Positions 6,955 to 63,742 of a stretch of 64,000 nucleotides of DNA are shown here, piece after piece. Origin of the DNA: Elusimicrobiota bacterium. GTDB lineage: Bacteria > Elusimicrobiota > Elusimicrobia > UBA1565 > JACRDR01. Position numbers and translations under genes: made by a program. The notes beneath the pieces are model-generated. The model worked only from the letters and a program-made list of their open reading frames with translations. It searched no databases and was not told where the DNA came from. The DNA lies in contig JBGFSC010000049.1 in assembly GCA_041694815.1 (NCBI GenBank), positions 32,001 to 96,000 of the forward strand, read 5' to 3'. How positions within the stretch are numbered: the stretch's first letter is position 1; each line of letters begins with the position of its first letter.

Positions 6955-7986
6955 CTAACCGCGGATCACCGCTGTAGAGGCGGGGGTCTTTACTTCAAAT
7001 TTATTGGAAGTGAAAAGCTTATTAATATGGAGCCACGTTCGGGAAAGACTCCCAATCGCTCGATCGACCAAATTGCCCGATTCTAGCGGCTGCAGCGTAA
7101 AGGCGGTGCCGGCTTGTAGCTCCATAGTGCTCCCGTCAAAGCGCATTACCATCACCCGATCACCATAATCCATATAAAGGACCCAATTCTTATGCTCATC
7201 TTTCATTCCAGCCGGGAGGACATACATCAGGCCGTCCGATAATACCGCCTTGACATGGCAATTCGTACAGTTCATGGTATTCGTCTTGCTGCCGGATGTA
7301 TCTGTTGTGCCCGCGGAACTGTCCGTCGTGCTACCGGAATCGATCACGTTACCATCGGCCGTCTCCGAGTCAGCGGTCGCGGAACTATCCGTCGTAGCGC
7401 CGGAATCGATCACGTTGCCATCGGCCGTTCCCGAATCAGCGGTCGCGTTGGGATCGATAAAATCGAGGGTAGCTTCATTCCATACGAAGCCGCTACCGGA
7501 GGTATCGGTGGTACTGCCAGAGCCGTCCGTCGTGCTGCAGGGATCAATCACGTTGCCATCGTAGGTGCTGCCGGAGCTGTCCGTCGTACTGCCGGAGCCG
7601 TCCGTGATGCCGGGGTCGATCACGTTGCCATCGTACGTGCTGCCGGAGCTGTCCGTCGTACTGCCGGAGCCGTCCGTGATGCCGGGGTCGATCACGTTGC
7701 CATCGTACGTACTGCCGGAGCTGTCCGTCGTACTGCCGGAGCCGTCCGTGATGCCGGGATCGATCACGTTGCCATCGTATGCTGGCTCCGAATCAGCAGT
7801 CGCGTTGGGATCGATAAAATCGAGGGTGGCTTCATTCCATACAAGACCGCTGTCATCGGTCGTAGGGGCTGGGTCAATGGGATCGACATACCAGCTCCCG
7901 TCATCGGTCTCATAGGTAAGCGCCGCGTAGGCGCTCGAAGCCAAGCAAGCCGATAACAAACAGATCGCAATGAATTTCGTTTTCAT
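6955..7986 (-). CDS. secreted acidic repeat protein with a single CxxCH motif and a FecR-like C-terminal segment
   Basis: Signal peptide; 20-aa repeats YDGNVIDPGITDGSGSTTDSSGST-like; CTNCH; ends FEVKTPASTAVIRG. Confidence 0.7.
   Translation of the reverse strand: MKTKFIAICLLSACLASSAYAALTYETDDGSWYVDPIDPAPTTDDSGLVWNEATLDFIDPNATADSEPAYDGNVIDPGITDGSGSTTDSSGSTYDGNVIDPGITDGSGSTTDSSGSTYDGNVIDPGITDGSGSTTDSSGSTYDGNVIDPCSTTDGSGSTTDTSGSGFVWNEATLDFIDPNATADSGTADGNVIDSGATTDSSATADSETADGNVIDSGSTTDSSAGTTDTSGSKTNTMNCTNCHVKAVLSDGLMYVLPAGMKDEHKNWVLYMDYGDRVMVMRFDGSTMELQAGTAFTLQPLESGNLVDRAIGSLSRTWLHINKLFTSNKFEVKTPASTAVIRG
7330..7842. repeat. intragenic tandem repeats (about 72-bp units, three near-identical, plus degenerate units and a duplicated WNEATLDFIDPNATADS block)
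   Basis: gatcacgttgccatcgtacgtgctgccggagctgtccgtcgtactgccggagccgtccgtgatgccggggtc recurs in frame within the CDS. Confidence 0.85.
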
Positions 7987-18379: not shown

Positions 18380-19552
18380 ATGGATCCCTTCCCCTTCGCC
18401 TTTTTTTGCTCCGCCAAATCGGCGGCGCAAAAAATACGGTCAGCACGGATCTCGTGGGTCTTAATACTGCTTGCATTCGCTCCGTTAACGACGAACGCCC
18501 AATACGGCCTGCTGCCGGATTCCCCAGAATCATTGCAAGTCGAAGCGACTAAGACGCTCGACGTTTGCGTCGATAAATACCTCCACTTCGCGATTTCCGG
18601 GAAAGTGCTTTTCACTCAATGCCATGAAAAGTTCGCCGCCTGGGATTGGATGACGGGCAAACGGTTATGGAGCTATTCCGCGCCCGACAACCTTATGCGG
18701 CTCGCGGTCAGCCCTAACGGCGAGAAGGTCGCCGCGGGCGTTGGAAACGGCGACGAGAAAGGAACGCTCATCCTATTGGACGCCCGGACAGGGACTCCGA
18801 CCGAGACCTTGAAGAAGCCCGGACATTATTTCAACGGGATCGAATTTAGCCCGGATTCCTCCCGCATCGTAAGCGTCGGCGGCGGAGAGGCCTATCTATG
18901 GCTTCTCGACAGCAAGACAATCGTACCGCTCGGAGAGCGCGGTGTCGTCAATGCGGGATTTAGCATCGATGGCGCATTCGCTTTTACGGTCCAAGACGAG
19001 AACTCTTTCTCGGTCTGGGATGGGCGCAGTGGTGAGCGCGCGCAACTATCTCAATGGACCGGAAGGGCCGGCTCGGATCATGAAAGCCTGGGCTGGGCCA
19101 TCAGCGCGGACGGCTCGAGATTCGCGCAGCTCGCCGAGGACGCCCCGCACGCCACGGTCATCCGAGACATGCGCAGCCGCAAGGAGCTGGCCCGAATCTC
19201 TTTCGAATGCCCGCATTACCCGAGAATGATGTTCAGCCGGGACGCCACGAAACTGCTTTTAGGATGCTATGACAAAGGCGCCGTAATTTTCGACACACGT
19301 ACCGTGAAACCGTTGCTGACGATCCGTGACAACGTTGATTACGCTTCGTTTACCCCGGACGATTCCAGCCTTATTCTTTCCAGCGAACACGATGGGAAGC
19401 TACGGATACTCAAAATCGATTCCTCGGGAGACCTCTCGCGGCTCAGAGAGGCGTTAAAGAACAAGGCTTCAACAGCCGACCTCCCATTTGCCGACGGCGA
19501 AACCGCCGAAGAGCGCTTCAAGCTGCCCTGGTCGCTCTTTCAGACGCGATAG
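18380..19552 (+). CDS. secreted WD40-like beta-propeller protein with C-terminal AEERFKL tag
   Basis: Repeats VSPNG/FSPDS/ISADG/FTPDD; hydrophobic signal-like stretch; start uncertain. Confidence 0.75.
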   Translation: MDPFPFAFFCSAKSAAQKIRSARISWVLILLAFAPLTTNAQYGLLPDSPESLQVEATKTLDVCVDKYLHFAISGKVLFTQCHEKFAAWDWMTGKRLWSYSAPDNLMRLAVSPNGEKVAAGVGNGDEKGTLILLDARTGTPTETLKKPGHYFNGIEFSPDSSRIVSVGGGEAYLWLLDSKTIVPLGERGVVNAGFSIDGAFAFTVQDENSFSVWDGRSGERAQLSQWTGRAGSDHESLGWAISADGSRFAQLAEDAPHATVIRDMRSRKELARISFECPHYPRMMFSRDATKLLLGCYDKGAVIFDTRTVKPLLTIRDNVDYASFTPDDSSLILSSEHDGKLRILKIDSSGDLSRLREALKNKASTADLPFADGETAEERFKLPWSLFQTR

Positions 19553-19554
19553 AT

Positions 19555-20367
19555 TCAGCGCGACAGCAATCCGGCGTCGATGATAAACGGCGAGCCCGTG
19601 ATGTAGCGCGCCTTCTCCGAGGCCAGATACACGACGGCCTGGGCCACGTCCTCCGGCTCGATCCAAGGCACGGGCAATAGATTTCCCGCCGAACGCTCGG
19701 CGATCTCGCGGGGGCTTAAGCCCTCCATTTCCGCCAGGCCGTCGTTCATCGGCGTGTTGACCCCGGTCGGGTGCAGCGAGACGACGCGGATGCCGTAGGG
19801 TGCCAGCTCGATCGCCCAGGACTTGGTCAGCCCCGTCAGGCCCCATTTGGAGGCGGCGTAATGGCTGAGCCTTCCCATGCCGCGCAGTCCGCCGACGGAG
19901 GAGTTATTGATGATCACGCCGGATTTCTGCGCGATCATGAGGGGAATCACCCGGCGCGCCACGAGCCAGGCGCCTTTAAGGTTGATGTCCAGCATCATGT
20001 CCCACTGCTCTTCCGTGAGCTCATGGGCGAGCCCGTAGGCGCAGATCCCGGCGTTGTTGAACAAGAGATCGATGCGGCCGAATCTCTTGCGCGCCGAATC
20101 GACCGCGCGTCCGACGGCTTTGTCATCGCGCACGTCGGCCTCGAAAGTCAGGCATCGCGCGCCCAAGGAGGCGCAGGCCTTGGCGAGTGATTTCAGATCC
20201 TCTGGCGATCCTAGCTTGTACGCCGGATACTTGAGCGCTCGCGCCACGTCCAGGGCCACGATGTCCATGCCCTCCGCGGCCAGGGCGAGGGCGGCCGCTC
20301 GGCCCTGCCCGTGAGCCGCGCCCGTGACAAGGCCGACCTTACCGCCCAGCTCTTTCTTTCTTGCCAT
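19555..20367 (-). CDS. SDR oxidoreductase, mycofactocin-coupled/carveol dehydrogenase-like subfamily
   Basis: TGAAHGQGR with the insert DVARALKYPAYKLGSPEDL, YAASK, HPTGVNTPM, NLLPVPWIEPEDV. Confidence 0.8.
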   Translation of the reverse strand: MARKKELGGKVGLVTGAAHGQGRAAALALAAEGMDIVALDVARALKYPAYKLGSPEDLKSLAKACASLGARCLTFEADVRDDKAVGRAVDSARKRFGRIDLLFNNAGICAYGLAHELTEEQWDMMLDINLKGAWLVARRVIPLMIAQKSGVIINNSSVGGLRGMGRLSHYAASKWGLTGLTKSWAIELAPYGIRVVSLHPTGVNTPMNDGLAEMEGLSPREIAERSAGNLLPVPWIEPEDVAQAVVYLASEKARYITGSPFIIDAGLLSR

Positions 20368-20893
20368 CGGGAGCGCAGTAGGGCTGCAGGTATTCGTCGA
20401 GGTCCACGCGAAGCGCGTTGTTGAAGACGTTGGTCGCGATCATCATGCCGCCGAAGGCGGTCAGAGCCACGATCTCGGCAGGCTTCAGGAACCGGGCCAG
20501 CCGGGCGTAAAGCTCATCGTTTACCCCATTGGAATCCTTGGCCAATTGCCGGCCGTAATCGACCACGGCCTCTTCTTTCTCGTCGAGCTTGAGCGAACCC
20601 GGATCCTCCCCGGAGTCGATGAGGATGCGGCGGAAGAACGTGGAGCAGATGAGGCAGTCGGTCTGCGAGGAGATGGCGTGCACGAACAGGGTGGCTGCCC
20701 GCTCGCCGAGAAATCCCGCGACCTCGGCCTGCAAGGGATACCATTGCATCAGGGCCGCGAGCGCCGTCGGGCTATGCCCGAGCGTACGTTTCATATTGGT
20801 GACCCGGCCGTGCGCCGCCTTCTGCCGGTCGTATTCGGCGCGCGAGGCCGCGCCCGCGCTCTCGTATTCGAGGGGAGGGATGCGCGCCGTCAC
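20339..20893 (-). CDS. carboxymuconolactone decarboxylase/AhpD-like protein
   Basis: HSPTALAA, ISSQTDCLICS (CxxC), MIATNVFNNAL. Confidence 0.75.
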   Translation of the reverse strand: MTARIPPLEYESAGAASRAEYDRQKAAHGRVTNMKRTLGHSPTALAALMQWYPLQAEVAGFLGERAATLFVHAISSQTDCLICSTFFRRILIDSGEDPGSLKLDEKEEAVVDYGRQLAKDSNGVNDELYARLARFLKPAEIVALTAFGGMMIATNVFNNALRVDLDEYLQPYCAPDGKKERAGR

Positions 20894-21945
20894 TGCAGCA
20901 TGCGCCGGCGGACCAGCTCGAGCACCTTCTGGTAGCCGCCCAGGAATTGATCCAAGGTGTGCACGGAGGCGCCGTAGCGCACGAACTCCTCTGGCTTCAT
21001 CCCGTTTTCGTCGTAAGCCTTTCTAAAATCGGCGAAGCCGTTCTCGAGCGCGGCGAGCACGCGGGGTTCGACGGGTTGCTCGAGCGTCCGGGAGACCGGA
21101 ATCGAGGAGTCGTTGAACTGCTTCCACCAGGCGTAGGGGATCGACTGGACTATCCCCTCGCCGATGAGCTCCGACCAATGCAGGTGATGCCGATAGGCGG
21201 CGACCAGGAGCTTGGCGCGGAACTTGCGGCGCTTAAACACTTGCCGGGCCTTCTTGAACACCGCGATGCCGGCCCAATTGAGGAAGCCCGGGTCTATGGA
21301 GACCTTCTCCCGCTCCATGATGCGCTTTAGATGATCGTCCAACCGTCCGACCATGAGCGTTACATAAGGCTGCGGCGGGACCTTGGCCCTCTTGAGGCCG
21401 CGCTCCATGGCCTCGGCGCAGGCGACGGCCTGCGGGAGCGTGAAGCTCACCGTCGCGTTGACCGGCACGCCTTCTGCGGTGAGCGCCTCGATGGCCTCCA
21501 ATCCCTCCGCCGTCGCGGGGGCCTTGATGGCGATATTGGGCGCTAGCCCCGCCAGATGGCGGCCATGCTCGAGCATGCGCTCGGGACTGCGGTAATATTT
21601 CGGGCTCACCTGCACCGAGAGATAGCCCTTCTCCCCCCCGGTCTTCTGGTGGACGGGCGCCAAGAGCGCCGCCGCGTCCACGGCTACTCGTTCGATAAGC
21701 TTCCAGGCGATCTCATCCTCGCTGTCCTTGGGGTTCTTGCGGATGATTTCCGAGAGCGTCGGCATCCAGGTCTCGGGGTCGTTTTCCAGCGCCGAGCCCA
21801 CGATCACCGGGTTGGAGGTGGCGCCGACGGCCCCCTGCTCTACCGCGTCGCGCAGCTCTTTTAGGTGGCAGGAATCGTTCCAAAAATCGACCCCCAATGC
21901 CTGGGTCCCTCCCAACGGCGTCGCCTTCTTCGTCTTTGTCAGCAT
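20890..21945 (-). CDS. transaldolase family protein
   Basis: FWNDS, GATSNP, SVQVSP, NIAIKAP (Schiff-base Lys), VNATVSF, MVGRLDD. Start at MLTKTKK with SD. Confidence 0.85.
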   Translation of the reverse strand: MLTKTKKATPLGGTQALGVDFWNDSCHLKELRDAVEQGAVGATSNPVIVGSALENDPETWMPTLSEIIRKNPKDSEDEIAWKLIERVAVDAAALLAPVHQKTGGEKGYLSVQVSPKYYRSPERMLEHGRHLAGLAPNIAIKAPATAEGLEAIEALTAEGVPVNATVSFTLPQAVACAEAMERGLKRAKVPPQPYVTLMVGRLDDHLKRIMEREKVSIDPGFLNWAGIAVFKKARQVFKRRKFRAKLLVAAYRHHLHWSELIGEGIVQSIPYAWWKQFNDSSIPVSRTLEQPVEPRVLAALENGFADFRKAYDENGMKPEEFVRYGASVHTLDQFLGGYQKVLELVRRRMLQ

Positions 21946-22817
21946 CCGATGGCCTTCCTGAGATATTCTCGGCCCTTGCGGGCGTACTCCAAGGGGTTGG
22001 CTTTCGCTGGGTCCTGCTCGGCCTCCACCACCAGCCAACCCTCATAATCCTTCTTTTTGAGCAGTTCGAAAATGGGGCGGTAATCGATGCACCCGTCGCC
22101 GGGCACCGTGAATACGCCCTCGCGCACCGCCTGCTCGAAGCTATAGCCCCGCGCGCGGGCCCTCTCGGCCACCTCCGGGCGCACGTCCTTTAAATGGACA
22201 TGGACGACCCGGTCCAAATGCCGCCCGATGACCGAGACCGGATCCATGCCGGCGAAGGCCATATGCCCGGTGTCGGCGAGCAGGCGCAGCTTCCTCGTCA
22301 TGGACATCAGACGGTCGAGCTCGGCCTCGTTCTGAATCACCGTGCCCATATGGTGGTGGTAGGCCGTCTGAAGGCCGAGGCCCTCTCCCAATTTCGCCAG
22401 GCGCTCGAGCCCCGAGGCGAGGCGCTCCCATTGCTCTTGCGTCAAGGGTTGCGCGTCGAAGCGCAGCGGGACCCCGCTGCGCTCGTAGACGCGCCCGCTA
22501 CACTCGGCCACGATGGCCACGCGGCTTCCCATCTCCGTGAGCAAGCGCGCGTGCTCGAGGAATCTTTTTCCCTCTTCTTCTACGCTTTTCGAAAGCAGGT
22601 AGCAGCTATGCCAGCCAGAAGCAAGCGCAAGCCGGTGTTGCGATAAAAGGGCCTTGAGCGCGGAGGGCTGCCTCGGGAATTTATGGCCCAATTCGGTGCC
22701 CGCGTAGCCGGCCTCGCGCATCTCGCTCAAGCATTGCTCGAGCGGGATCGAGCCGCCGAGATCCCGGAAGTCGTCGTTGCTCCAACCGATCGGCTGGGCC
22801 GCTATCCGAACCTTCAT
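21939..22817 (-). CDS. iolE: myo-inosose-2 dehydratase
   Basis: PIGWSNDD, YHHHMGT, DTGH, HVHLKDVR, FTVPGDG, VVEAEQDP. Confidence 0.93.
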   Translation of the reverse strand: MKVRIAAQPIGWSNDDFRDLGGSIPLEQCLSEMREAGYAGTELGHKFPRQPSALKALLSQHRLALASGWHSCYLLSKSVEEEGKRFLEHARLLTEMGSRVAIVAECSGRVYERSGVPLRFDAQPLTQEQWERLASGLERLAKLGEGLGLQTAYHHHMGTVIQNEAELDRLMSMTRKLRLLADTGHMAFAGMDPVSVIGRHLDRVVHVHLKDVRPEVAERARARGYSFEQAVREGVFTVPGDGCIDYRPIFELLKKKDYEGWLVVEAEQDPAKANPLEYARKGREYLRKAIGC

Positions 22818-22818
22818 C

Positions 22819-24684
22819 TCAGTAATAAAACCTCTGGCGTTTCGCCTTAGCGACGTAATCCGCGCGCGAGCGCCGCACCGAGGCGGGCCTGGAGACCTCG
22901 GCCACCGGGACATCCCACCAGGAAAAGCCCGGCACGAAGCGGTCGGGGTCGACGGGGACGTGGATGAGGGCCGTGCGCGGCTGCTCGCGCGCCTCGCGCA
23001 GGGCGTGGGCCAGCGAGTCGCGGTCCTTGGCCGACCAAGTCGCGGCCCCTAGGCTCGCCGCGTTGGAGACGAAGTCGAGCGCGAGGGTCGGCCCGGTCAA
23101 TCGGCCGGTCGCGGCCTCGCGGTGGCGGAACTCGTTGCCGAAGCCGGGCCCCGCCGTGTGCCGCTGCAGGTTGTGTATGCACTGGTAGCCGTGATTGTCG
23201 AGCAGCACGATCGTGATCTTGAGGCCCTCCTGCACCGCGGTCGCGATCTCGTGGTTGAGCATCAGGTAGCTGCCGTCCCCAACGGCGGCGTAGACCTCGC
23301 GGTCGGGCCGGGCCATCTTGATCCCCAGGGCCCCGGCGATCTCGTAACCCATGCAGGAATAGCCGTATTCCGAATGGTAGTCCCCGGGCGCCTTCGAGCG
23401 CCACAGCTTATGCAGGTCTCCCGGCAATCCGCCGGCGGCGTGCACGAGGATCGAGTTCTCATCGAGCGCCTCGTTGAGTACCGAGATCACCTCGGCCTGC
23501 GACATCCGCGCGCCTGCGGGAGGCTTTACGATCGCGGCATAGCGGCGCTCCCAGTCCTCCTTGGCCGCGCGGATCTCCGCCGCGTAGGCTCGCGGGATTT
23601 TATGCCCTTGCAGTGCCCGACCCAAGGATTCGAGCGTGGCCTTGGCGTCCGCGGCGATGGGCAGCGCCCCGTGCTTACGGGCGTCGAAGGCGTTAAGATT
23701 AATATTGATGAAGCGGACGCCTGGTTCCTGGAACTGCGTCTTGGAGGCCGTGGTAAAATCGGAGTACCGGTGGCCCACCGACAGGACGAGATCGGCCTTA
23801 AGGGCGAGGCGGTTGGCGGCCGAATTGCCCGTCGCGCCGACGGCGCCGATGCAGAGCGGATGCGAATCCGGCAGAGCACCCTTGCCCGCCTGGGTGCATG
23901 CCACCGGGATGCCCAGGCGCTCGGCGAAGGCGCGCAGGGCCTCGGTCGCCTCCGAATAGTGAACACCACCGCCCGCGATGATGAGGGGCCGCCGCGCCGA
24001 GCGCAGCCAGCGCGCCGCCTCCCGAAGGGCCTCGCGCGAGGGCTGCGGACGAGGCACCGCGTAGACCCTTTTTTCGAAGAAGGCCGCCGGATAGTCGAAG
24101 GCCTCGGCCTGCACGTCCTCGGGAAGGCAGAGCGTCACCGCCCCGGTCTCGGCGGGGTCGGCCAGCACGCGCATGGCCTCGGGCAGCGCCGCTAGGATCT
24201 GCTCGGGACGGTTGATTCGGTCCCAATATCGCGAGACGGGCTTAAAGCAATCATTGACGCTTACATCCATGCTCTGCGGGAACTCGAGCTGCTGGAGCAC
24301 CGGATTGGGCCGGCGATTGGCGAAGATATCTCCGGGCAGTAGGAGGACCGGGATGCGGTTGATGGTCGCACCCGCCGCGCCGGTGACCATGTTGGTCGCG
24401 CCGGGGCCGACCGAGCTGGTGCAGGCCATGGCGCCGAGGCGGTGCAGGGTTTTCGAGTACGCCGCCGCGGCATGCACCATCGCCTGCTCGTTTTTCGGCT
24501 GGAAATAGGGAAGCTCCCGGCCGCCGCGCTCCTCCAAGGCCTGGCCGAGGCCCGCCACGTTGCCGTGGCCGAAAATCCCGAATACCCCGCGGATGAGCCG
24601 ATGCTCCGCGCCGTCGCGCGAGACGTATTGCCGCTTGAGGAACTCCACCATGGCCTGGCCCATCGTCAGGCGGATCGTCCTCAT
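22819..24684 (-). CDS. iolD: 3D-(3,5/4)-trihydroxycyclohexane-1,2-dione acylhydrolase (TPP-dependent)
   Basis: TIRLTMGQA, IFGHGNVAG, EYGYSCMGYE, GDGSYLM, WWDVPVAEVS. Confidence 0.95.
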   Translation of the reverse strand: MRTIRLTMGQAMVEFLKRQYVSRDGAEHRLIRGVFGIFGHGNVAGLGQALEERGGRELPYFQPKNEQAMVHAAAAYSKTLHRLGAMACTSSVGPGATNMVTGAAGATINRIPVLLLPGDIFANRRPNPVLQQLEFPQSMDVSVNDCFKPVSRYWDRINRPEQILAALPEAMRVLADPAETGAVTLCLPEDVQAEAFDYPAAFFEKRVYAVPRPQPSREALREAARWLRSARRPLIIAGGGVHYSEATEALRAFAERLGIPVACTQAGKGALPDSHPLCIGAVGATGNSAANRLALKADLVLSVGHRYSDFTTASKTQFQEPGVRFININLNAFDARKHGALPIAADAKATLESLGRALQGHKIPRAYAAEIRAAKEDWERRYAAIVKPPAGARMSQAEVISVLNEALDENSILVHAAGGLPGDLHKLWRSKAPGDYHSEYGYSCMGYEIAGALGIKMARPDREVYAAVGDGSYLMLNHEIATAVQEGLKITIVLLDNHGYQCIHNLQRHTAGPGFGNEFRHREAATGRLTGPTLALDFVSNAASLGAATWSAKDRDSLAHALREAREQPRTALIHVPVDPDRFVPGFSWWDVPVAEVSRPASVRRSRADYVAKAKRQRFYY

Positions 24685-25487
24685 AACGGCGGCCGCCACC
24701 CCTGCTTCTTGGGATCGAGCGTCCATTCATGCTCGGGAAGGAACTTAAAGCCCCGGTACGGGTTGTCCTTAAGATGGCGCACCACCCAGAGATACCACAT
24801 CCCGTAGCCCGGGGCGGCGACCTGCGCATGGCCGACGCAGTTCAATATCTTGAGCGTGTCGCGCTGGCGCACCTTGTAGACTTCCTCGCCGAGCTCGCCG
24901 TGCCCATAGCCCTGCGGCTCGGTGAAGCGGTAATGGTAGATCTCGGCCTGCGGGTGCGTGTGGGGCGGGTAGCTCGACCAGCGCCCCGGATAGTTGACCA
25001 CCTCGCCCAGGACGAGATTGGCCTGGGGCCGGTTGTTCCAATCGAAGATGAGTCGGACATTGCGCAGCGCGGCCTCCTGGACCAAGCCCTTACCGCGGTA
25101 CTCGGACTCAAGCCCTTCGGGCAGGAACAGCTTGGGCTCGAAGCGTCGGCTGTTTTCCGCGCGCATCAGCGCCCATTCCACATCGCCCAACGCCTTAATA
25201 CACACGGGCGTCGACGGCCCCACGTGTAGAGCGGTCGGCTGCTCCTCGAACAGCGAGCGGCGCGACAGGCGGCTCCGGATGCCTCCCGCCTCGACCTCCA
25301 CCTCGCCGCCTAAGAGCAGCCAAGCCGATTCCTTGGGGTGCGTCTCGGAAATCGTATCGCCGGCCTTTAGCTTCCAAAAGCCGAGGTCCATGCCCGTGTC
25401 GCATTCCCGTTCGCCCTCCTCGGTCACCGCCGTGAATCCCGGAGGGAAGCCATCACGGAACCGGGTGATATGCGCCGGGCTATTCAC
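24681..25487 (-). CDS. iolB: 5-deoxy-glucuronate isomerase
   Basis: GEVVNYPGRWSSYPPHTHPQAEIYHY, HAQVAAPGYGMWY. Confidence 0.9.
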   Translation of the reverse strand: MNSPAHITRFRDGFPPGFTAVTEEGERECDTGMDLGFWKLKAGDTISETHPKESAWLLLGGEVEVEAGGIRSRLSRRSLFEEQPTALHVGPSTPVCIKALGDVEWALMRAENSRRFEPKLFLPEGLESEYRGKGLVQEAALRNVRLIFDWNNRPQANLVLGEVVNYPGRWSSYPPHTHPQAEIYHYRFTEPQGYGHGELGEEVYKVRQRDTLKILNCVGHAQVAAPGYGMWYLWVVRHLKDNPYRGFKFLPEHEWTLDPKKQGWRPPL

Positions 25488-26491
25488 GCCAGCTCCGACA
25501 GGCGCACGGGGCGCTTCTCCTGGAACGATTTCTTGGCCGCCAGCCCTAGCAGCACGGCCTGGAGCCCATCCTCGCCGCCAACGGGCGGCGCGGCCTTGTC
25601 CCGAAGGGAGTCGACAAAGGCCTGCATCTCGTCACGATAGGCCTGGGCATAGCGTTCGATGAAGAAATGATGCGGCGGGTCCTTGCGCGAGCCCTCGGGC
25701 CCCCAATGCTCGACGCCGTTGGGCCCGACGTTGGAGGACTTAGCGCAGCCTCCCGAGCCGAACACCTCCACGCGCTGGTCATAGCCGTAAGCCGCTCTTC
25801 GCGAATTATCGATGGCGCCGATGGCCCCTCCCTTGTAGCGGAGGGTGATGAGCGCCGTGTCCACGTCTCCCAAGCGCCCGATCTCGGGATCGACGAGCAC
25901 GGCTCCCGCGGCATAGACCTCCTCGATTTCGTCTTGGATCACGAAGCGGGCCATGTCGAAGTCATGGATGGCCATATCCAGAAACAGCCCTCCGGACACC
26001 CGGATATATTCCGAGGGCGGTGGCTGCGGGTCACGGCTGGTGATGCGCACCAGCTGCGGCGAGCCGACCTCGCCACGGCGCACCAGCTCGGCCACGCGCT
26101 TGAATTGCGCGTCGAATCGCCGGTTGAAGCCCACCTGCAGGCGGACTCCATGCCTGTCGACCGCGGCGAGGGCCCGGCGGATGGCGGAAATCTCGAGGTC
26201 GATGGGCTTTTCGCAGAAGACGTGCTTTCCCGCCGCGGCGGCCTCCTCGATGAGCCGGGCGTGGGTGTCCGTGGAGGAACAGATGACGATCGCCTCGATC
26301 TTGCCGTCCCCTAGCATCGGGCGATGATCGGCCAACGCTTGCGCCCCCCCGGCCTCCGAGGCAAGCGCGCGGGCGGCCTCCAGGTTGATGTCCGAGACGG
26401 CCTGAAGGCGGGCGCCCCCGACGCTCCGGAAAAGGTTCAAGGCATGGACCCGGCCGATGCGCCCGGCGCCGATGACGCCGATGCCGATCAT
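25484..26491 (-). CDS. iolG: inositol 2-dehydrogenase
   Basis: GAGRIGRVH, CEKP, VGFNRRFD, DMAIHDFD, GYDQRVEVFG. Confidence 0.92.
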   Translation of the reverse strand: MIGIGVIGAGRIGRVHALNLFRSVGGARLQAVSDINLEAARALASEAGGAQALADHRPMLGDGKIEAIVICSSTDTHARLIEEAAAAGKHVFCEKPIDLEISAIRRALAAVDRHGVRLQVGFNRRFDAQFKRVAELVRRGEVGSPQLVRITSRDPQPPPSEYIRVSGGLFLDMAIHDFDMARFVIQDEIEEVYAAGAVLVDPEIGRLGDVDTALITLRYKGGAIGAIDNSRRAAYGYDQRVEVFGSGGCAKSSNVGPNGVEHWGPEGSRKDPPHHFFIERYAQAYRDEMQAFVDSLRDKAAPPVGGEDGLQAVLLGLAAKKSFQEKRPVRLSELA

Positions 26492-33785: not shown

Positions 33786-34961
33786 CTACAGTTTAAACCT
33801 CTCCTCGGCGCTGTCGGAGCGCCCGTTTTCGGGCTTGGCCGCCTCCGCGGCCGGGGCCGACAGCACCCGTTTGAGCTTCTCCATGGCCGCCCGATTGACC
33901 TCCTGGATGCCGATTCTCCAAACCCGGACCGTCGTGTCATCGCTGGCGGTCACCAGCTGGGAGCCGTCCCGGCTGAAGGCGGCCGACCAAACGGTGCCCT
34001 CGTGCCCTTCGAAGCTTTCGAGCAGGGCCGCCGTCTTCGCGTCCCAGACCAGCACCCGGGCGTCCGCCCCGGCCGTCACGATCCACTCTCCTTTGGGATC
34101 GAATCGGGCGCTTGTGACGGGGCCGGAATGCCCGCGCAGGGTTTGGAAGGGCTTTCCCGACTCGGCGTCCCAAACGATCGCCAGCTGATCCGCGCCGGCG
34201 GTGACGATCCTGGTCCCATCGGGGCTGAAAGAGGCGAAGTTGACGAAATCCGCATGGCCCTTGAATTCGCGGATCTTTTGCCCCGTCTGTGCGTCCCAGA
34301 GCGCCGCGGTTTTATCCCAACTGGCCGTGAGAACCTTCGCACCGTCCGGGCTAAAGCAGGCGTAGCGTACGGGAGCCTTATGGCCCTTAAGCTCCAGTTT
34401 CTTCTGCGCCCCGGGCATCCAAATCACCGCCTTGTGATTAGACTGGGCCAACACGATCTTGGTTCCGTCGGGGCTGAACTCGGCCGAATGGACTGTGATC
34501 GGAGATGACAATATTCCTTTTTGAACGAGCGATCTCTTTGAGAGCGACGCCCAGAGGTATTGCAACTTGTCCCATACTACGACTTGCCCATCATCGGTGG
34601 CCGCCACCAGCTCTCCGGTACTCATGCCGATGTGGAGAATTTTCCCCCTAAAGCCATTGCGTTCATAGTTCGAAGCGCCGCCGCCTCGAAGGTCTCTCCT
34701 ATGAATGGAGTTGCCCTGCACAAACAACAGTTCAGCCCCATCCGGTGTCAAGATGGCCGAATATACGGGCGCCCCCCGGCCGACGTTGCTCTTGATGACT
34801 TGCACCCTCGGGAGTTGCCCCGTCAGCGCCTCATCCAAGGCGCCCTGATGAGAAGCCGCCAAACGCGCGCGATTGTCGAAAAGCGAGGCCAGCTCCTCCG
34901 GCGAGCTCAGATCGTCCGCGAAGGCGCTCGCCGAAAAGAGCCAAAGGAGAAGCGCGATCAT
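33786..34961 (-). CDS. secreted WD40 repeat protein with C-terminal AEERFKL tag
   Basis: Canonical LKGH...FSPDG...TASWDKTAALWD repeats; ATGA overlap with the upstream gene. Confidence 0.88.
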   Translation of the reverse strand: MIALLLWLFSASAFADDLSSPEELASLFDNRARLAASHQGALDEALTGQLPRVQVIKSNVGRGAPVYSAILTPDGAELLFVQGNSIHRRDLRGGGASNYERNGFRGKILHIGMSTGELVAATDDGQVVVWDKLQYLWASLSKRSLVQKGILSSPITVHSAEFSPDGTKIVLAQSNHKAVIWMPGAQKKLELKGHKAPVRYACFSPDGAKVLTASWDKTAALWDAQTGQKIREFKGHADFVNFASFSPDGTRIVTAGADQLAIVWDAESGKPFQTLRGHSGPVTSARFDPKGEWIVTAGADARVLVWDAKTAALLESFEGHEGTVWSAAFSRDGSQLVTASDDTTVRVWRIGIQEVNRAAMEKLKRVLSAPAAEAAKPENGRSDSAEERFKL

Positions 34962-35680
34962 CGCCGATCCAGCCATCGCCCGAATTTTTGTCCCGCTTCG
35001 TATAGCACGGCGCTCAGGGGAAGCGCGGACATCAGACAAGCCCTTAAGAACATGAACTTAATCTGAGGAATAACGCGCCTGGCGTACTGAGCCTCAATGT
35101 ACAGACTCAAGTGCCGCCCCACCAAGGCGGTGACGACGGCACCTATAGCCAGATACGGCGCAGTTCCCACAAGGAGCTGCCCGCTGATCGGCGCGGCCGA
35201 ACCAGGACAGGTAGCCATTCCCGCAATGCCGCCAATGATGAGCGAAACGCCCAATTCGAAGGGGTCGTAGGGCTGCTTCCGAACTTTGCGGCTGATGCCC
35301 ATCATGGAGATAAACGTAGCGGCGACTCCGCAGGCCAACAGCACCCTAAGGATATCGCCGGTCGCGGGCATTACCGCGATCAGCACTGCAGCGGACGCGA
35401 TCCCGCCTAGTCCGGCCCCGAGCTTTGACCATCGATTTTCCTCCTTGGGCCATTCCCGCCGTCGGGTCGGCAGCGAGGGCGCGGGGACCGCGGCGGCCTT
35501 GGCGGCGATTACAGGAGCCGCCGTCGGCGCGGCGGCCAGAGCCACCGCGTCCACGCCTATCGCAGGGACTACCTGCCCTTCGCCGAACGCAGCGCCGGAG
35601 GCGACCTTAGCCTCCTCCAAAGAGCCGCAAACGCCGGCGGCGGGCAGCAGCAACGAGATCGCGAGAATAGGCGCCTTCAT
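34958..35680 (-). CDS. hypothetical secreted/membrane protein, paralog 3
   Basis: MKAPILAISLLLPAAGVCG-SLEEAKVASGAAFGEG...PSLPTRRREWPKEENRW...GRWLDRR; ATGA-coupled. Confidence 0.8.
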   Translation of the reverse strand: MKAPILAISLLLPAAGVCGSLEEAKVASGAAFGEGQVVPAIGVDAVALAAAPTAAPVIAAKAAAVPAPSLPTRRREWPKEENRWSKLGAGLGGIASAAVLIAVMPATGDILRVLLACGVAATFISMMGISRKVRKQPYDPFELGVSLIIGGIAGMATCPGSAAPISGQLLVGTAPYLAIGAVVTALVGRHLSLYIEAQYARRVIPQIKFMFLRACLMSALPLSAVLYEAGQKFGRWLDRR

Positions 35681-39753: not shown

Positions 39754-40713
39754 ATGCCCCTCTTTTTCTATTTTTTATCGCTGTTCGCCTGCAACGCCGC
39801 CGCCGGATTGCTGAGCGATATGAAAGCGGAACTCCAAAAGCCGCTCAAAACCCTCGATCTCGGCGTGCGATGGGTCAGTGAAATGACTTTCAGCCCCGAC
39901 GGCTCGAAAATCATCGCCCTGTATTGGGACACGAGAAGGGCTGAATTGCGCGACGCGCTCACGGGCGAGCTGCTGCAGGCCTTCGTCTCCGCTGAAGAAT
40001 TTAGGCAGGCCGCCTTCAGCCCCGACGGCTCTAAGATCCTGACGATCGGCTTCGATAAGACGGCGACCCTTTGGAACGCGCGAAACGGCTCCCGGGTCAT
40101 GCGTTTGGGCGGAGACCGAAAGGATTTCGAGTTTGCGTCGTTTAGCCGAGACGGGCTCAAGATCGTCACGAGCAACTATCATACGAGAGGTGACGCGATC
40201 ATCTGGGACGCGTCGACGGGCAAGAAGCTCACGCTGCTGAGGGGTCATCTCGGGGCCGTCCTGGCGGCGCAATTTAGCCCGGACGCCTCGCGTGTGGTCA
40301 CGGCCAGCTGGGACAGCACCACCATCGTCTGGAACGCGCTAACGGGTAAGCGTCCCTCCCGGTGCATGCGTCATCCCGGCCCGGTTTTTTCGGCCGCATT
40401 CAGCCCCGACGGCAAGAAGGTGATTACCGTATCGGACGACCGCGACACCGTCGCGATCTTCGACGTGAAAACCGAAAAAGTCCTACAAATAATCAAACTT
40501 CCTTCCCAGGCGACCTACGCTTCGTTTACCTCGGATGGGAAAAATGCCATCACGGGCGGCCATGACGGCCGCATCCACACATGGAGAAACCCGGAGCAAA
40601 TAGAGGCGCTCCAAAAAAAGCGGCTTCTCTCCGACAAGGCCTCGAGGCCCAGGCCGCTGGCAGGCCGGGAACTCGCCGAGGACAGGTTTCGATTCGACCT
40701 CATCCAGTTCTGA
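39754..40713 (+). CDS. secreted WD40 repeat protein with C-terminal AEDRFRF tag (tandem paralog)
   Basis: Collinear with the previous gene; LRGH...TASWDST. Confidence 0.85.
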   Translation: MPLFFYFLSLFACNAAAGLLSDMKAELQKPLKTLDLGVRWVSEMTFSPDGSKIIALYWDTRRAELRDALTGELLQAFVSAEEFRQAAFSPDGSKILTIGFDKTATLWNARNGSRVMRLGGDRKDFEFASFSRDGLKIVTSNYHTRGDAIIWDASTGKKLTLLRGHLGAVLAAQFSPDASRVVTASWDSTTIVWNALTGKRPSRCMRHPGPVFSAAFSPDGKKVITVSDDRDTVAIFDVKTEKVLQIIKLPSQATYASFTSDGKNAITGGHDGRIHTWRNPEQIEALQKKRLLSDKASRPRPLAGRELAEDRFRFDLIQF

Positions 40714-62680: not shown

Positions 62681-63742
62681 TTAGGCGGCCGGCTGGTTTA
62701 GCGTGCGTTCTAACCGACCGACCGATGCCGTGATCTCATCGAACGAAGGGGTCGCTCCGAAGATCATTCCGGACATGCGCGAATAGTCTTCTTCCAAGCC
62801 CTTGCGCATCGCCGGTGTCGGCAGCAAAGCAAAGGTTCCCGGCTTCGCGCTGGAGAGATCAAAGTCTGGCCGATTGAAGAACATTCGGGCATGGCGGACG
62901 CATTCCGAGGCCAGCGGTAGATTGCCCGCGATCGCCTCGGCGTTCTTTCCGGCAAGCAAGCAATGCACGTCGTAATAGTGGCGGGAGACTCGCTGCCCCT
63001 CCTGCCGCAACTCGCCGCGAATCTCGAACCACCGGCGCAGGCCGTGAAGGATGACCACCTTATCCCAAAATGTGCGCGCCGGCTCGATCGTCCTGACGCC
63101 TTTGATGCCGAGCTGCTTCCCCGGCGCGTCAGCCGCAACGAAAGGCGATATAGTCGCCGCCACGTTCGGGTCCAGTGCCGACTTGGCGCCGGATTCGATC
63201 TTGATGGAGGGATGCACATAGGAGTCACCCGTCGTTACGGCGCTCGGGTATCGCACGAGTAGCGTTTGTCCATCTGGATCGGAATCATCGAGCAGCACGC
63301 CTGTGTCACCAGCGCCAATGCCGGCGGCCTTCATCGTCTCGGCGAGAACGCCTTGGAGTTGAGGCTGGAGAATATCCTTGATGTAATGTTGGCAGCCGTC
63401 CTTGATGGCGTCAAGCCAGGCCTGGCGTTTCTTGCCGGTCAGCTTTCCGAGTTCTTCGGGGGAAGATGATAGGCCCAGATCGGCCCGGAACACGGTAATA
63501 TCAATGTCCTCTGAAAAACGCTGGATCAGCCCGAACGCCTTGGAAAGGGAAGTCCCGCCCTTGAAGAGCAATCGGGGGCCGCCGGGAGCTAATTGATGAA
63601 ACAGCGCATCGAGAGTCCAGCACGCCCAAAAATCCTTTTCTACATTCTGTTCCGTGGTGCCGATCCGCCTGGCCGTCGCCGCAAAGAGCCCGCGCCGCTC
63701 GTCTTTGGACGCCGCAAGGATACCCGCATAGCCGGCATTCAT
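62681..63742 (-). CDS. nucleotidyltransferase AbiEii/AbiGii family toxin
   Basis: VEKDFW, LFKGGTSLSKAFGLIQRFSEDID, RTFWDK, SRHYYD. Confidence 0.92.
   Translation of the reverse strand: MNAGYAGILAASKDERRGLFAATARRIGTTEQNVEKDFWACWTLDALFHQLAPGGPRLLFKGGTSLSKAFGLIQRFSEDIDITVFRADLGLSSSPEELGKLTGKKRQAWLDAIKDGCQHYIKDILQPQLQGVLAETMKAAGIGAGDTGVLLDDSDPDGQTLLVRYPSAVTTGDSYVHPSIKIESGAKSALDPNVAATISPFVAADAPGKQLGIKGVRTIEPARTFWDKVVILHGLRRWFEIRGELRQEGQRVSRHYYDVHCLLAGKNAEAIAGNLPLASECVRHARMFFNRPDFDLSSAKPGTFALLPTPAMRKGLEEDYSRMSGMIFGATPSFDEITASVGRLERTLNQPAA

Follow-up and report, generated by a model that had tools for sequence, protein, structure and literature searches.

Inositol breakdown in the Elusimicrobiota bacterium considered here likely includes an undescribed kinase-free route for a six-carbon sugar acid, judging from gene content and the comparison of genomes. 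The window (the whole stretch of DNA analysed, 64,000 nucleotides) contains seven minus-strand genes, overlapping or abutting, in the order iolG-iolB-iolD-iolE-transaldolase-AhpD-like-SDR. The fifth of these encodes a divergent member of the transaldolase (TAL) family that probably cleaves 2-deoxy-5-keto-D-gluconate (DKG) in its unphosphorylated form. An earlier interpretation made from the letters alone (the sequence-only reading) had proposed that the enzyme stands in for both IolC and IolJ, with unphosphorylated DKG as its substrate, a proposal now supported by the genome-wide absence of IolC, IolJ and DUF2090, by near-exclusion of IolC in Anaerolineae, and by gene position.

The operon and its genome

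Gene calls and profiles confirm the tight string from iolG to the SDR, without iolC, iolJ or iolA, that had been described from the window. The genes are as follows.

25484..26491, minus strand: iolG, inositol 2-dehydrogenase, 335 aa (TIGR04380, 461 bits; equivalog cut-off 355)
24681..25487, minus strand: iolB, 5-deoxy-glucuronate isomerase family, 268 aa (PF04962)
22819..24684, minus strand: iolD, ThDP-dependent trihydroxycyclohexanedione acylhydrolase, 621 aa (TIGR04377, 913 bits; equivalog cut-off 715)
21939..22817, minus strand: iolE, myo-inosose-2 dehydratase, 292 aa (TIGR04379, 389 bits; equivalog cut-off 290)
20890..21945, minus strand: divergent transaldolase/FSA-family enzyme, 351 aa, proposed to cleave DKG (PF00923)
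20339..20893, minus strand: AhpD/CMD-like protein with C80-x-x-C83, 184 aa (weak NF053654 and TIGR01926 matches)
19555..20367, minus strand: SDR, putatively mycofactocin-coupled (carveol dehydrogenase-like), 270 aa (TIGR03971)

The junctions, in gene order from iolG, measure -4, -4, +1, -7, -4 and -29 nt. The canonical upstream set of IolG, IolE, IolD and IolB is complete in the operon, IolB by Pfam alone: it passes the KduI/IolB family (178 vs 24 bits) and falls below the TIGR04378 cut-off (92 vs 205), and homologues of 43-70% identity are present in other iol-TAL loci. A promoter scan returned no sites and terminators were at chance level. Five query transporters gave no match to an inositol transporter, a point against the proposed pathway.

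The genome is 97.8% complete, so that absences from it are likely without being proven. A search for iolC and iolJ, put forward in the sequence-only reading as a check, found neither: no IolC exceeds the cut-off genome-wide (best 62-66 of 300 bits), and neither class II aldolase of the IolJ type (PF01116) nor DUF2090 has any match in the whole genome. IolA (MMSDH) is likewise not found over cut-off genome-wide (best 353 of 448.5 bits), nor is DhaK found there. A separate housekeeping transaldolase, over cut-off and 26% identical to the operon enzyme, lies on another contig (C51); GlpK is over cut-off, and the PfkA and class I aldolase genes are adjacent to each other. Kinase-free cleavage is proposed because IolC, class II FBA and DUF2090 are all missing from a genome of this completeness that has its own housekeeping TAL, although one PfkB kinase of no assigned role and a LacD-type aldolase, also present, count against it.

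Fold and active site of the transaldolase-family enzyme

The operon TAL scores 153 bits against PF00923 (cut-off 27) and lies below the cut-off of all 10 NCBIfam TAL/FSA models matched, with a best transaldolase score of 107 of 367 bits. Sequence search gave 3120 matches among 7998 candidates scored, a large family labelled just "transaldolase", and an atlas search returned "Transaldolase" clusters alone. Stigmatella aurantiaca has a homologue (WP_013377565.1). The predicted structure (pLDDT 96.6) best matches Neisseria transaldolase 3clm (Z 38.4, rmsd 2.2, 317 aligned). Residues D24, N45, Q112, K141, T165, M198, R201, A250, R252 and W257 are invariant in 108/108 clade members; of these, K141 (the Schiff-base Lys), D24, N45 and T165 align with identical residues in the housekeeping TAL, and T196 and N163 of the C1 pocket are also kept.

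The departures concern Glu96/Glu60, the acid/base residue of transaldolases, and the Phe178/Phe132 site. Throughout the clade the former is Gln (Q112) and the latter Met (M198), whereas the housekeeping TAL keeps Glu and Phe. A Gln at the acid/base site is of FSA type, according to the alignment and the titles of PDB entries 4rxg, 4xz9 and 4rz6, and the catalytic Tyr of FSA (Phe178/Tyr131 site) is the invariant Met. No substitute catalyst for the lost Glu was identified in the enzyme, which counts against a transaldolase reaction. The classical phosphate site consists of two Arg and one Ser in the accessible part of PMC3962226, where Tyr at the Phe178 site is also described as switching TalB to aldolase activity; in the operon enzyme R201 is kept, and A250/R252 correspond to Ser/Arg through an ungapped stretch that scores only 0.8 bits against Thermus TAL. 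The operon TAL belongs to a distinct clade of the TAL/FSA superfamily, with an active-site pair, as read from sequence, that is neither of the classical TAL nor of the FSA kind.

Neighbourhood of the clade and exchange with IolC

Co-occurrence with iol genes and anti-correlation with iolC, suggested earlier as a further check, are both borne out. Other genomes show the association too, with the genes in more than one order: iolB, iolD or iolE lies beside the clade TAL in 57/87 loci, and iolC in 2/87. All three genes accompany it in 23 loci, where iolC occurs in L017 alone, whose TAL is frameshifted. The 10 of 32 loci of at least 10 kb that have no iolB/D/E count against an iol-specific role. 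In a sample of 301 Anaerolineae, iolD is found in 23/28 genomes with the clade and in 46/273 without it; among these 69 iolD-bearing genomes IolC is present in 4/23 with the clade TAL vs 38/46 without, in a set whose Fisher p values count related genomes as independent cases and whose genome completeness is not reported. The two genes are also alike in position: TAL adjoins iolB or iolD in 15/15 Anaerolineae loci and IolC does so in 14/14.

The IolC-bearing Anaerolineae are mostly without an IolJ-type aldolase (class II FBA in 9/38), and DUF2090 gives one weak match in the 69 iolD genomes. Their IolC operons mostly show no aldolase gene; therefore the gene replaced by TAL is the kinase, and the clade tracks loss of kinase rather than loss of aldolase. 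Exceptions exist: IolC and the clade TAL share one operon or locus in G382, G396, L015 and L017, and are found together at the level of the genome in G359, G429 and G1056, the last a member of the Clostridia. An iolC-like match in L059 proved to be a ribokinase. No second lineage in which to repeat the exclusion test was found, the clade being present in 1/350 further Actinomycetota, 0/250 further genomes of the Pleomorphomonas order, 0/235 further Bacillota (three distant matches only) and 0/150 further genomes from the phylum of the window (a single distant match). Some paralogues of the clade lie directly beside a gene for D-mannonate oxidoreductase (over cut-off in 5 loci), others beside IolA or IolN/IolM, neighbours that suggest unphosphorylated 5-keto-hexonate substrates.

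Proposed pathway and competing explanations

IolG, IolE, IolD and IolB would convert myo-inositol to DKG. This compound, also 5-deoxy-D-fructuronate, is a ketose in open-chain form whose C1 hydroxyl is free and whose C3/C4 are D-threo, the donor geometry accepted by transaldolases. The TAL-family enzyme would cleave it through a Lys141 Schiff base, giving malonate semialdehyde, with Arg201 and Arg252 presumably binding the substrate carboxylate. The most likely fate of the dihydroxyacetone (DHA) unit would be transfer to glyceraldehyde-3-phosphate (GAP), so that fructose-6-phosphate (F6P) forms. We put cleavage with this transfer at a little short of an even chance, and favour it over release of free DHA because the genome has no DhaK, the enzyme has no Tyr at the FSA position, and both phosphate-site Arg are kept, R252 as mapped through the 0.8-bit stretch. 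F6P could return to triose phosphate via the adjacent PfkA and class I aldolase. As a precedent for transfer, SftT needs GAP or E4P in the accessible part of PMC7491151.

The reaction written out in the sequence-only reading, DKG + GAP to F6P + malonate semialdehyde, is a plausible one, but it does not stand apart from that of an FSA-type aldolase, equally kinase-free, which would release free DHA for phosphorylation by glycerol kinase or DhaK, or for reduction. Such an aldolase is possible but less likely. The invariant Gln, as in FSA, would suit it, as would the Ala in place of the phosphate-binding Ser (A250, mapped through the same 0.8-bit stretch) and the presence of GlpK, an enzyme able to phosphorylate DHA. 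DhaK is carried by 12/19 TAL-positive, IolC-negative Anaerolineae, an enrichment over 16/38 that is not significant (p 0.17), and is missing from the other 7/19 as it is from the window's genome; the recognised neighbour clusters of the 87 loci include no recurrent DHA kinase family. The fold, moreover, is of the long transaldolase type, and the Tyr that switches TalB, in the accessible part of PMC3962226, is Met in 108/108.

Substitution for IolJ alone, with DKG-6-phosphate supplied by IolC or an unrecognised kinase, would account for the iolC genes in the TAL operons of G382 and G396 and in the L015 locus, and could draw on the unassigned PfkB kinase of this genome or those near the operon in 5/87 loci. 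It is nonetheless improbable: an enzyme that works with IolC would be expected in the same genomes, the pattern is near-exclusion, and IolC genomes mostly get by with no aldolase in the operon. The C1 pocket residues T196 and N163 are kept, and the donors of TAL/FSA enzymes have their C1 hydroxyl free. Alternatively, the enzyme could be an ordinary or accessory transaldolase whose substrate is F6P/S7P or some other keto-acid (fructuronate, or what other inositol isomers give rise to), DKG being processed in a different way. This would fit the loci outside iolB/D/E and the four paralogues of G1056, one of them next to genes for PFK, a class II aldolase and transketolase; 8/46 clade-less iolD Anaerolineae also lack IolC, so that either a further route or incompleteness must exist. 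This explanation also seems improbable, as a housekeeping TAL is already present, the classical Glu/Phe pair is replaced, and the iol coupling in several gene orders and the exclusion of IolC would be left unexplained.

Fate of malonate semialdehyde

In the proposed kinase-free pathway, malonate semialdehyde would be removed by IolA in most relatives and here by the SDR or some aldehyde dehydrogenase of general function; one aldehyde dehydrogenase of this genome is encoded on contig C20. That the SDR or the AhpD-like protein disposes of it, as had been suggested from the window, gained no comparative support: IolA is the recurrent partner of the clade TAL (17/87 loci), the AhpD-like gene occurs in 0/87, and SDRs near other TAL copies are at most 36% identical to the operon SDR, the five scanned belonging to other subfamilies. 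Comparison of loci and genomes argues against the pair as a conserved module of TAL loci. Either may still dispose of the semialdehyde in this genome, which is without IolA.

The AhpD-like protein has no Pfam match and 3030 homologues (JGI name "alkylhydroperoxidase family enzyme"); a query of 80 genomes, run without a positive control, did not find it. Its gene is cotranscribed by position and lies outside the conserved module. The SDR scores 298.8 bits against TIGR03971 (cut-off 300) and best matches PDB 3oec (E 3e-60), while the best match to the mycofactocin gene MftC genome-wide stays below cut-off, at 89 of 265 bits. It is a possible semialdehyde reductase in this genome only.

Relation to known systems

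Bacillus subtilis IolC + IolJ and the IolC-DUF2090 fusions, as far as the accessible part of PMC9007349 describes them, have the same IolG, IolE, IolD and IolB upstream, the same C3+C3 cut of DKG and IolA as usual neighbour, with malonate semialdehyde predicted here also. The present operon differs in that a kinase is missing, as are aldolases of the class II and DUF2090 kinds; the Schiff-base enzyme with the TAL fold would, by prediction, cleave its substrate ahead of any phosphorylation. The same logic is found in the sulfo-TAL pathway of SftT/SqvA (accessible parts of PMC7491151 and PMC12890257; PDB 8bc2-8bc4), in which an isomerase is followed by a transaldolase in place of kinase and aldolase, an anion-tailed ketose is cleaved, and an aldehyde dehydrogenase follows. 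SftT, however, is a short TAL (~218 aa) of the sulfoquinovose cluster, whereas the operon TAL has 351 aa, an iol context and a predicted carboxylate tail on its substrate. The two share 23-24% identity (Z ~23 over 196-199 residues; 28 bits to BmSF-TAL) and belong to separate clades, so the relation is analogy, not orthology. With the classical long TAL (Neisseria 3clm, C. glutamicum 3r5e, E. coli TalB) the operon enzyme has in common the fold, the catalytic Asp, Asn, Lys and Thr, and Arg201, and it differs in falling below the NCBIfam cut-offs and in the changes Glu to Gln, Phe to Met and, as mapped through the 0.8-bit stretch, phosphate Ser to Ala. E. coli FsaA (1l6w), which works on unphosphorylated DHA, has the same Gln at the acid/base site, but the operon TAL lacks its catalytic Tyr and has a long fold (Z 21.4, 24% identity).

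Implications

A literature search covering main texts outside subscription found no assay and no paper that connects a transaldolase with the lower part of the iol pathway; neighbours of this kind might be named in the supplements of PMC9430895. The main texts of PMC9430895, PMC9007349 and PMC13617567 do not contain the word "transaldolase", and PMC7736159 and PMC12130570 name it as a pentose-phosphate enzyme only. Megamonas genomes are reported to have iolGEDB but no iolC (PMC13617567). A further lead, an apiose-pathway decarboxylase of the TAL family, found no support in the literature. In their accessible parts, surveys count IolC among the core, essential genes for inositol catabolism (PMC9430895) and annotation tools know IolJ or DUF2090 alone for the cleavage step (PMC9007349).

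If true, an ending without the kinase would account for many clusters that have no iolC, roughly a quarter of the iolD Anaerolineae sampled (19/69). It would save no ATP in full catabolism if F6P returns via ATP-dependent PfkA, the gain presumably being a direct supply of hexose phosphate. Neither side of the switch between transaldolase and FSA matches the invariant Gln/Met pair; one assay would therefore test pathway and mechanistic rule together, and an enzyme taking carboxylated, unphosphorylated ketoses would be of interest to biocatalysis. More broadly, and tentatively, the clade may represent a widespread and so far undescribed family of keto-uronate transaldolases in at least five phyla, with a new, Gln/Met kind of active site, that cleave unphosphorylated 5-keto-hexonates (DKG, and fructuronate-type acids in paralogues) and provide a kinase-free lower inositol pathway as the carboxylate counterpart of sulfo-TAL. 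A function would then be assigned to a large family that has carried only the name of transaldolase.

Operon and gene content of the genome

The seven-gene operon described in the sequence-only reading was borne out, with every gene on the minus strand and junctions of -4, -4, +1, -7, -4 and -29 nt. IolG, IolD and IolE reach NCBIfam equivalog cut-offs; IolB is KduI/IolB by Pfam and scores under the TIGR04378 cut-off. The fifth product, a divergent transaldolase (TAL enzyme), matches PF00923 at 153 bits and NCBIfam transaldolase models at no more than 107 of 367 bits. A WD40 protein and a protein of no known kind flank the operon, both on the opposite strand. Features of the window are:

19555..26491, minus strand: iolG-iolB-iolD-iolE-transaldolase-AhpD-like-SDR operon
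20890..21945, minus strand: TAL enzyme, 351 aa
19555..20893, minus strand: AhpD-like CxxC protein and mycofactocin-type SDR
18380..19552, 33786..35039, 39754..40713: WD40 beta-propeller proteins (N-termini signal-like in at least two)
7250..7915: repetitive stretch, plus-strand frames giving repeated peptide units
62681..63742: AbiEii-family nucleotidyltransferase (type IV toxin-antitoxin), close to the end of the window

What that reading saw in the window extends to the genome (G000; 2.77 Mb, 97.8% complete, 0.5% contaminated), in which no IolC above cut-off, no class II FBP aldolase and no DUF2090 protein was found. Of its three PfkB proteins, two are of heptose-kinase type and the third, which reaches 66 of 300 bits on IolC, is unassigned. 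DeoC and glycerol kinase (GlpK) are encoded, as is a LacD-type class I aldolase that adjoins a phosphofructokinase gene and is therefore probably the glycolytic aldolase. A housekeeping transaldolase above cut-off, on contig C51, is 26% identical to the TAL enzyme. The operon holds no inositol transporter, and five transporters of other iol loci, used as queries, matched the genome only weakly. None of its seven aldehyde dehydrogenase matches passes the cut-off for MMSDH/IolA (best 353 of 448.5). Both iolD and the TAL clade are absent from six genomes of the same order; the closest relative in the tree is an Elusimicrobia MAG carrying iolB-iolD-iolE-TAL.

The suggestion that the SDR or the AhpD-like protein disposes of the semialdehyde gained no support, the AhpD-like gene being absent from all 87 clade loci and not retrieved from 80 genomes when used as query; since IolA is absent, the two may still play such a role in this organism. 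Both belong to large families (more than 100 relatives each, at 68-81% identity). Of three distant plasmid relatives, two lie among non-iol genes and the third is in a record without annotation. The SDR resembles the mycofactocin-coupled type, scoring 298.8 bits on TIGR03971 against a cut-off of 300, although no MftC above cut-off was found in the genome (best 89 of 265 bits). One AhpD-like relative and one SDR relative are each recorded on an NCBI contig 50,048 nt long; this lone hint suggests that the two travel as their own pair, and they may be a separate redox pair.

Neighbourhoods of the clade

Of the 87 loci, seven come from species genomes; the others are the best 80 among 504 metagenome loci confirmed in a scan spanning 30 of 64 parts. 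They carry iolD in 44, iolE in 39, iolB in 35, iolG in 32, IolA in 17 and iolC in 2. At least one of iolB, iolD and iolE is present in 57/87 (22/32 among loci of at least 10 kb) and all three in 23, among which iolC occurs only in L017, a Pleomorphomonas locus with IolC-DUF2090 and a frameshifted TAL gene. Removing five partial or broken rows and collapsing the rest at 90% identity left 72 loci, 48 with iolB, iolD or iolE, 18 with all three and one with iolC. Several gene orders occur (E-tal, B-tal-D, tal-B-D, D-tal), a pattern that speaks for functional selection rather than one inherited block. Named records place the clade in Elusimicrobiota, Chloroflexota, Bacillota, Actinomycetota and Alphaproteobacteria; myxobacterial homologues (61-64% identity) come from sequence matches. 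Two copies are broken by decay or sequencing error: the frameshifted one (L017:10001-11043) and one with a stop (L130:9966-11200), in a genome without IolC (G308). A plasmid iol cluster (L176, NZ_CP021037.1) combines a clade transaldolase with a DeoC-type aldolase and a tautomerase-family gene, which we take to be a possible malonate semialdehyde decarboxylase.

Outside iolBDE, a D-mannonate oxidoreductase above cut-off directly adjoins the clade gene in L029, L030, L112 and L124 (two genes off in L042), MMSDH above cut-off is often near (L087, L112, L124, L136, and L148 of an outer branch), and a Thermotoga-type IolN with an IolM-like dehydrogenase lies beside it in L012 and L091, and by Pfam in L193. 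Unphosphorylated 5-keto-hexonates and semialdehydes are the products or substrates of such enzymes, and these contexts independently hint at the same class of substrate. Some clade paralogues may act on a substrate other than 2-deoxy-5-keto-D-gluconate (DKG). In L112:7734-11326 and L124:7313-10788 the mannonate-oxidoreductase SDR, TAL and IolA genes are consecutive without iolBDE, a candidate route for 2-deoxy-gluconate or fructuronate. Clostridia genome G1056 has four clade paralogues (L186, L193, L194, L195), one of them surrounded by genes for PFK, class II aldolase and transketolase.

Exchange with IolC

Among 301 Anaerolineae genomes, 50 had profile matches at E 1e-60 and 28 formed a core group below 1e-130, a threshold placed at a gap observed after the search. 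In the test that the sequence-only reading proposed, the clade co-occurs with iol genes there (iolD in 23/28 core genomes versus 46/273 others) and is anti-correlated with iolC: of 69 genomes with iolD, IolC passes cut-off in 4/23 with the TAL enzyme and 38/46 without (Fisher p 2e-7, a value that overstates significance since related genomes count as independent; genome completeness is not reported). Of the 38 with IolC and no TAL enzyme, just 9 have a class II aldolase and 29 lack it; nearly all lack DUF2090, weakly matched in 1/69 iolD genomes. Eighteen IolC regions, drawn from the 42 IolC genomes, mostly show B-C-D order without a recognisable aldolase; in one (L169) a LacD-type gene is confirmed. 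An iol operon without IolJ is thus ordinary in Anaerolineae. Presence of the TAL enzyme goes with loss of the kinase, an indication that its substrate is unphosphorylated. Counter-examples to exclusion are a tal-B-C-D order in G382 and G396, IolC elsewhere in the genome in G429 and G359, both genes in L015 and in G1056, and eight iolD Anaerolineae with neither. Further lineages searched offered none with enough clade copies for a second test.

Five Anaerolineae regions (L137, L138, L139, L141, L142; genomes G223, G241, G255, G313, G412) carry iolD-iolE(-iolG) without iolB, iolC or clade TAL, possibly a third lower route; three have a mannonate dehydratase, an enolase-family dehydratase and a PfkB kinase close by. 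In the IolC operons L156-L173, mostly without an aldolase gene, a candidate for the DKG-phosphate aldolase is the PRK12858 LacD-type protein, whose gene adjoins iol genes in L153 and L169.

Active site and predicted mechanism

The AlphaFold model of the TAL enzyme (pLDDT 96.6) best matches long transaldolases (3clm, Z 38.4, rmsd 2.2, 317 aligned), followed by TalB (Z 32.9), sulfofructose transaldolase (Z 23.1) and fructose-6-phosphate aldolase (FSA; Z 21.4). The 108 core sequences form a single branch (support 98, quick tree) with D24, S25, N45, Q112, K141, T165, M198, R201, A250, R252 and W257 invariant. Q112 aligns with the Glu, the acid/base residue of transaldolases, and M198 with the Phe of Neisseria and housekeeping enzymes; counting from the ends of the matched stretch puts them at residues 60 and 132 in the Thermoplasma enzyme, both of which are altered in its E60Q/F132Y variant. 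The clade has the Gln of FSA but not its Tyr. PMC3962226 describes TalB F178Y as an aldolase and the TalB phosphate site as two Arg and one Ser; the clade keeps R201 and, on a weak alignment anchor, appears to keep the second Arg (R252) and to have lost the Ser (A250). Such a site would fit a carboxylate-tailed donor.

DKG is 5-deoxy-D-fructuronate, in open-chain form with the donor geometry of fructose. It would form a Schiff base at K141, retro-aldol cleavage would release malonate semialdehyde, and the dihydroxyacetone unit would then pass to glyceraldehyde 3-phosphate or be hydrolysed off. That the TAL enzyme cleaves DKG without a kinase, in either form, we consider likely. Free release of the unit would suit the Gln at the acid/base site and the presence of GlpK, yet it seems rather unlikely; transfer is tentatively favoured because the FSA Tyr is missing and both arginines appear to be kept, because DhaK was not found in this genome and is not significantly enriched in Anaerolineae with the TAL enzyme but no IolC (12/19 versus 16/38), and because sulfofructose transaldolase offers a precedent (SftT; PMC7491151 and PMC12890257).

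Implications

In published accounts, iolB, C, D and E are the core genes (PMC9430895), DUF2090 is the only addition to the cleavage step (PMC9007349), and Megamonas is reported to have iolGEDB without iolC (PMC13617567). Literature searches, supplements aside, found no published link of a transaldolase to the lower inositol route. Predicted from sequence as it is, the iol-transaldolase route is a real and conserved variant of the textbook pathway.
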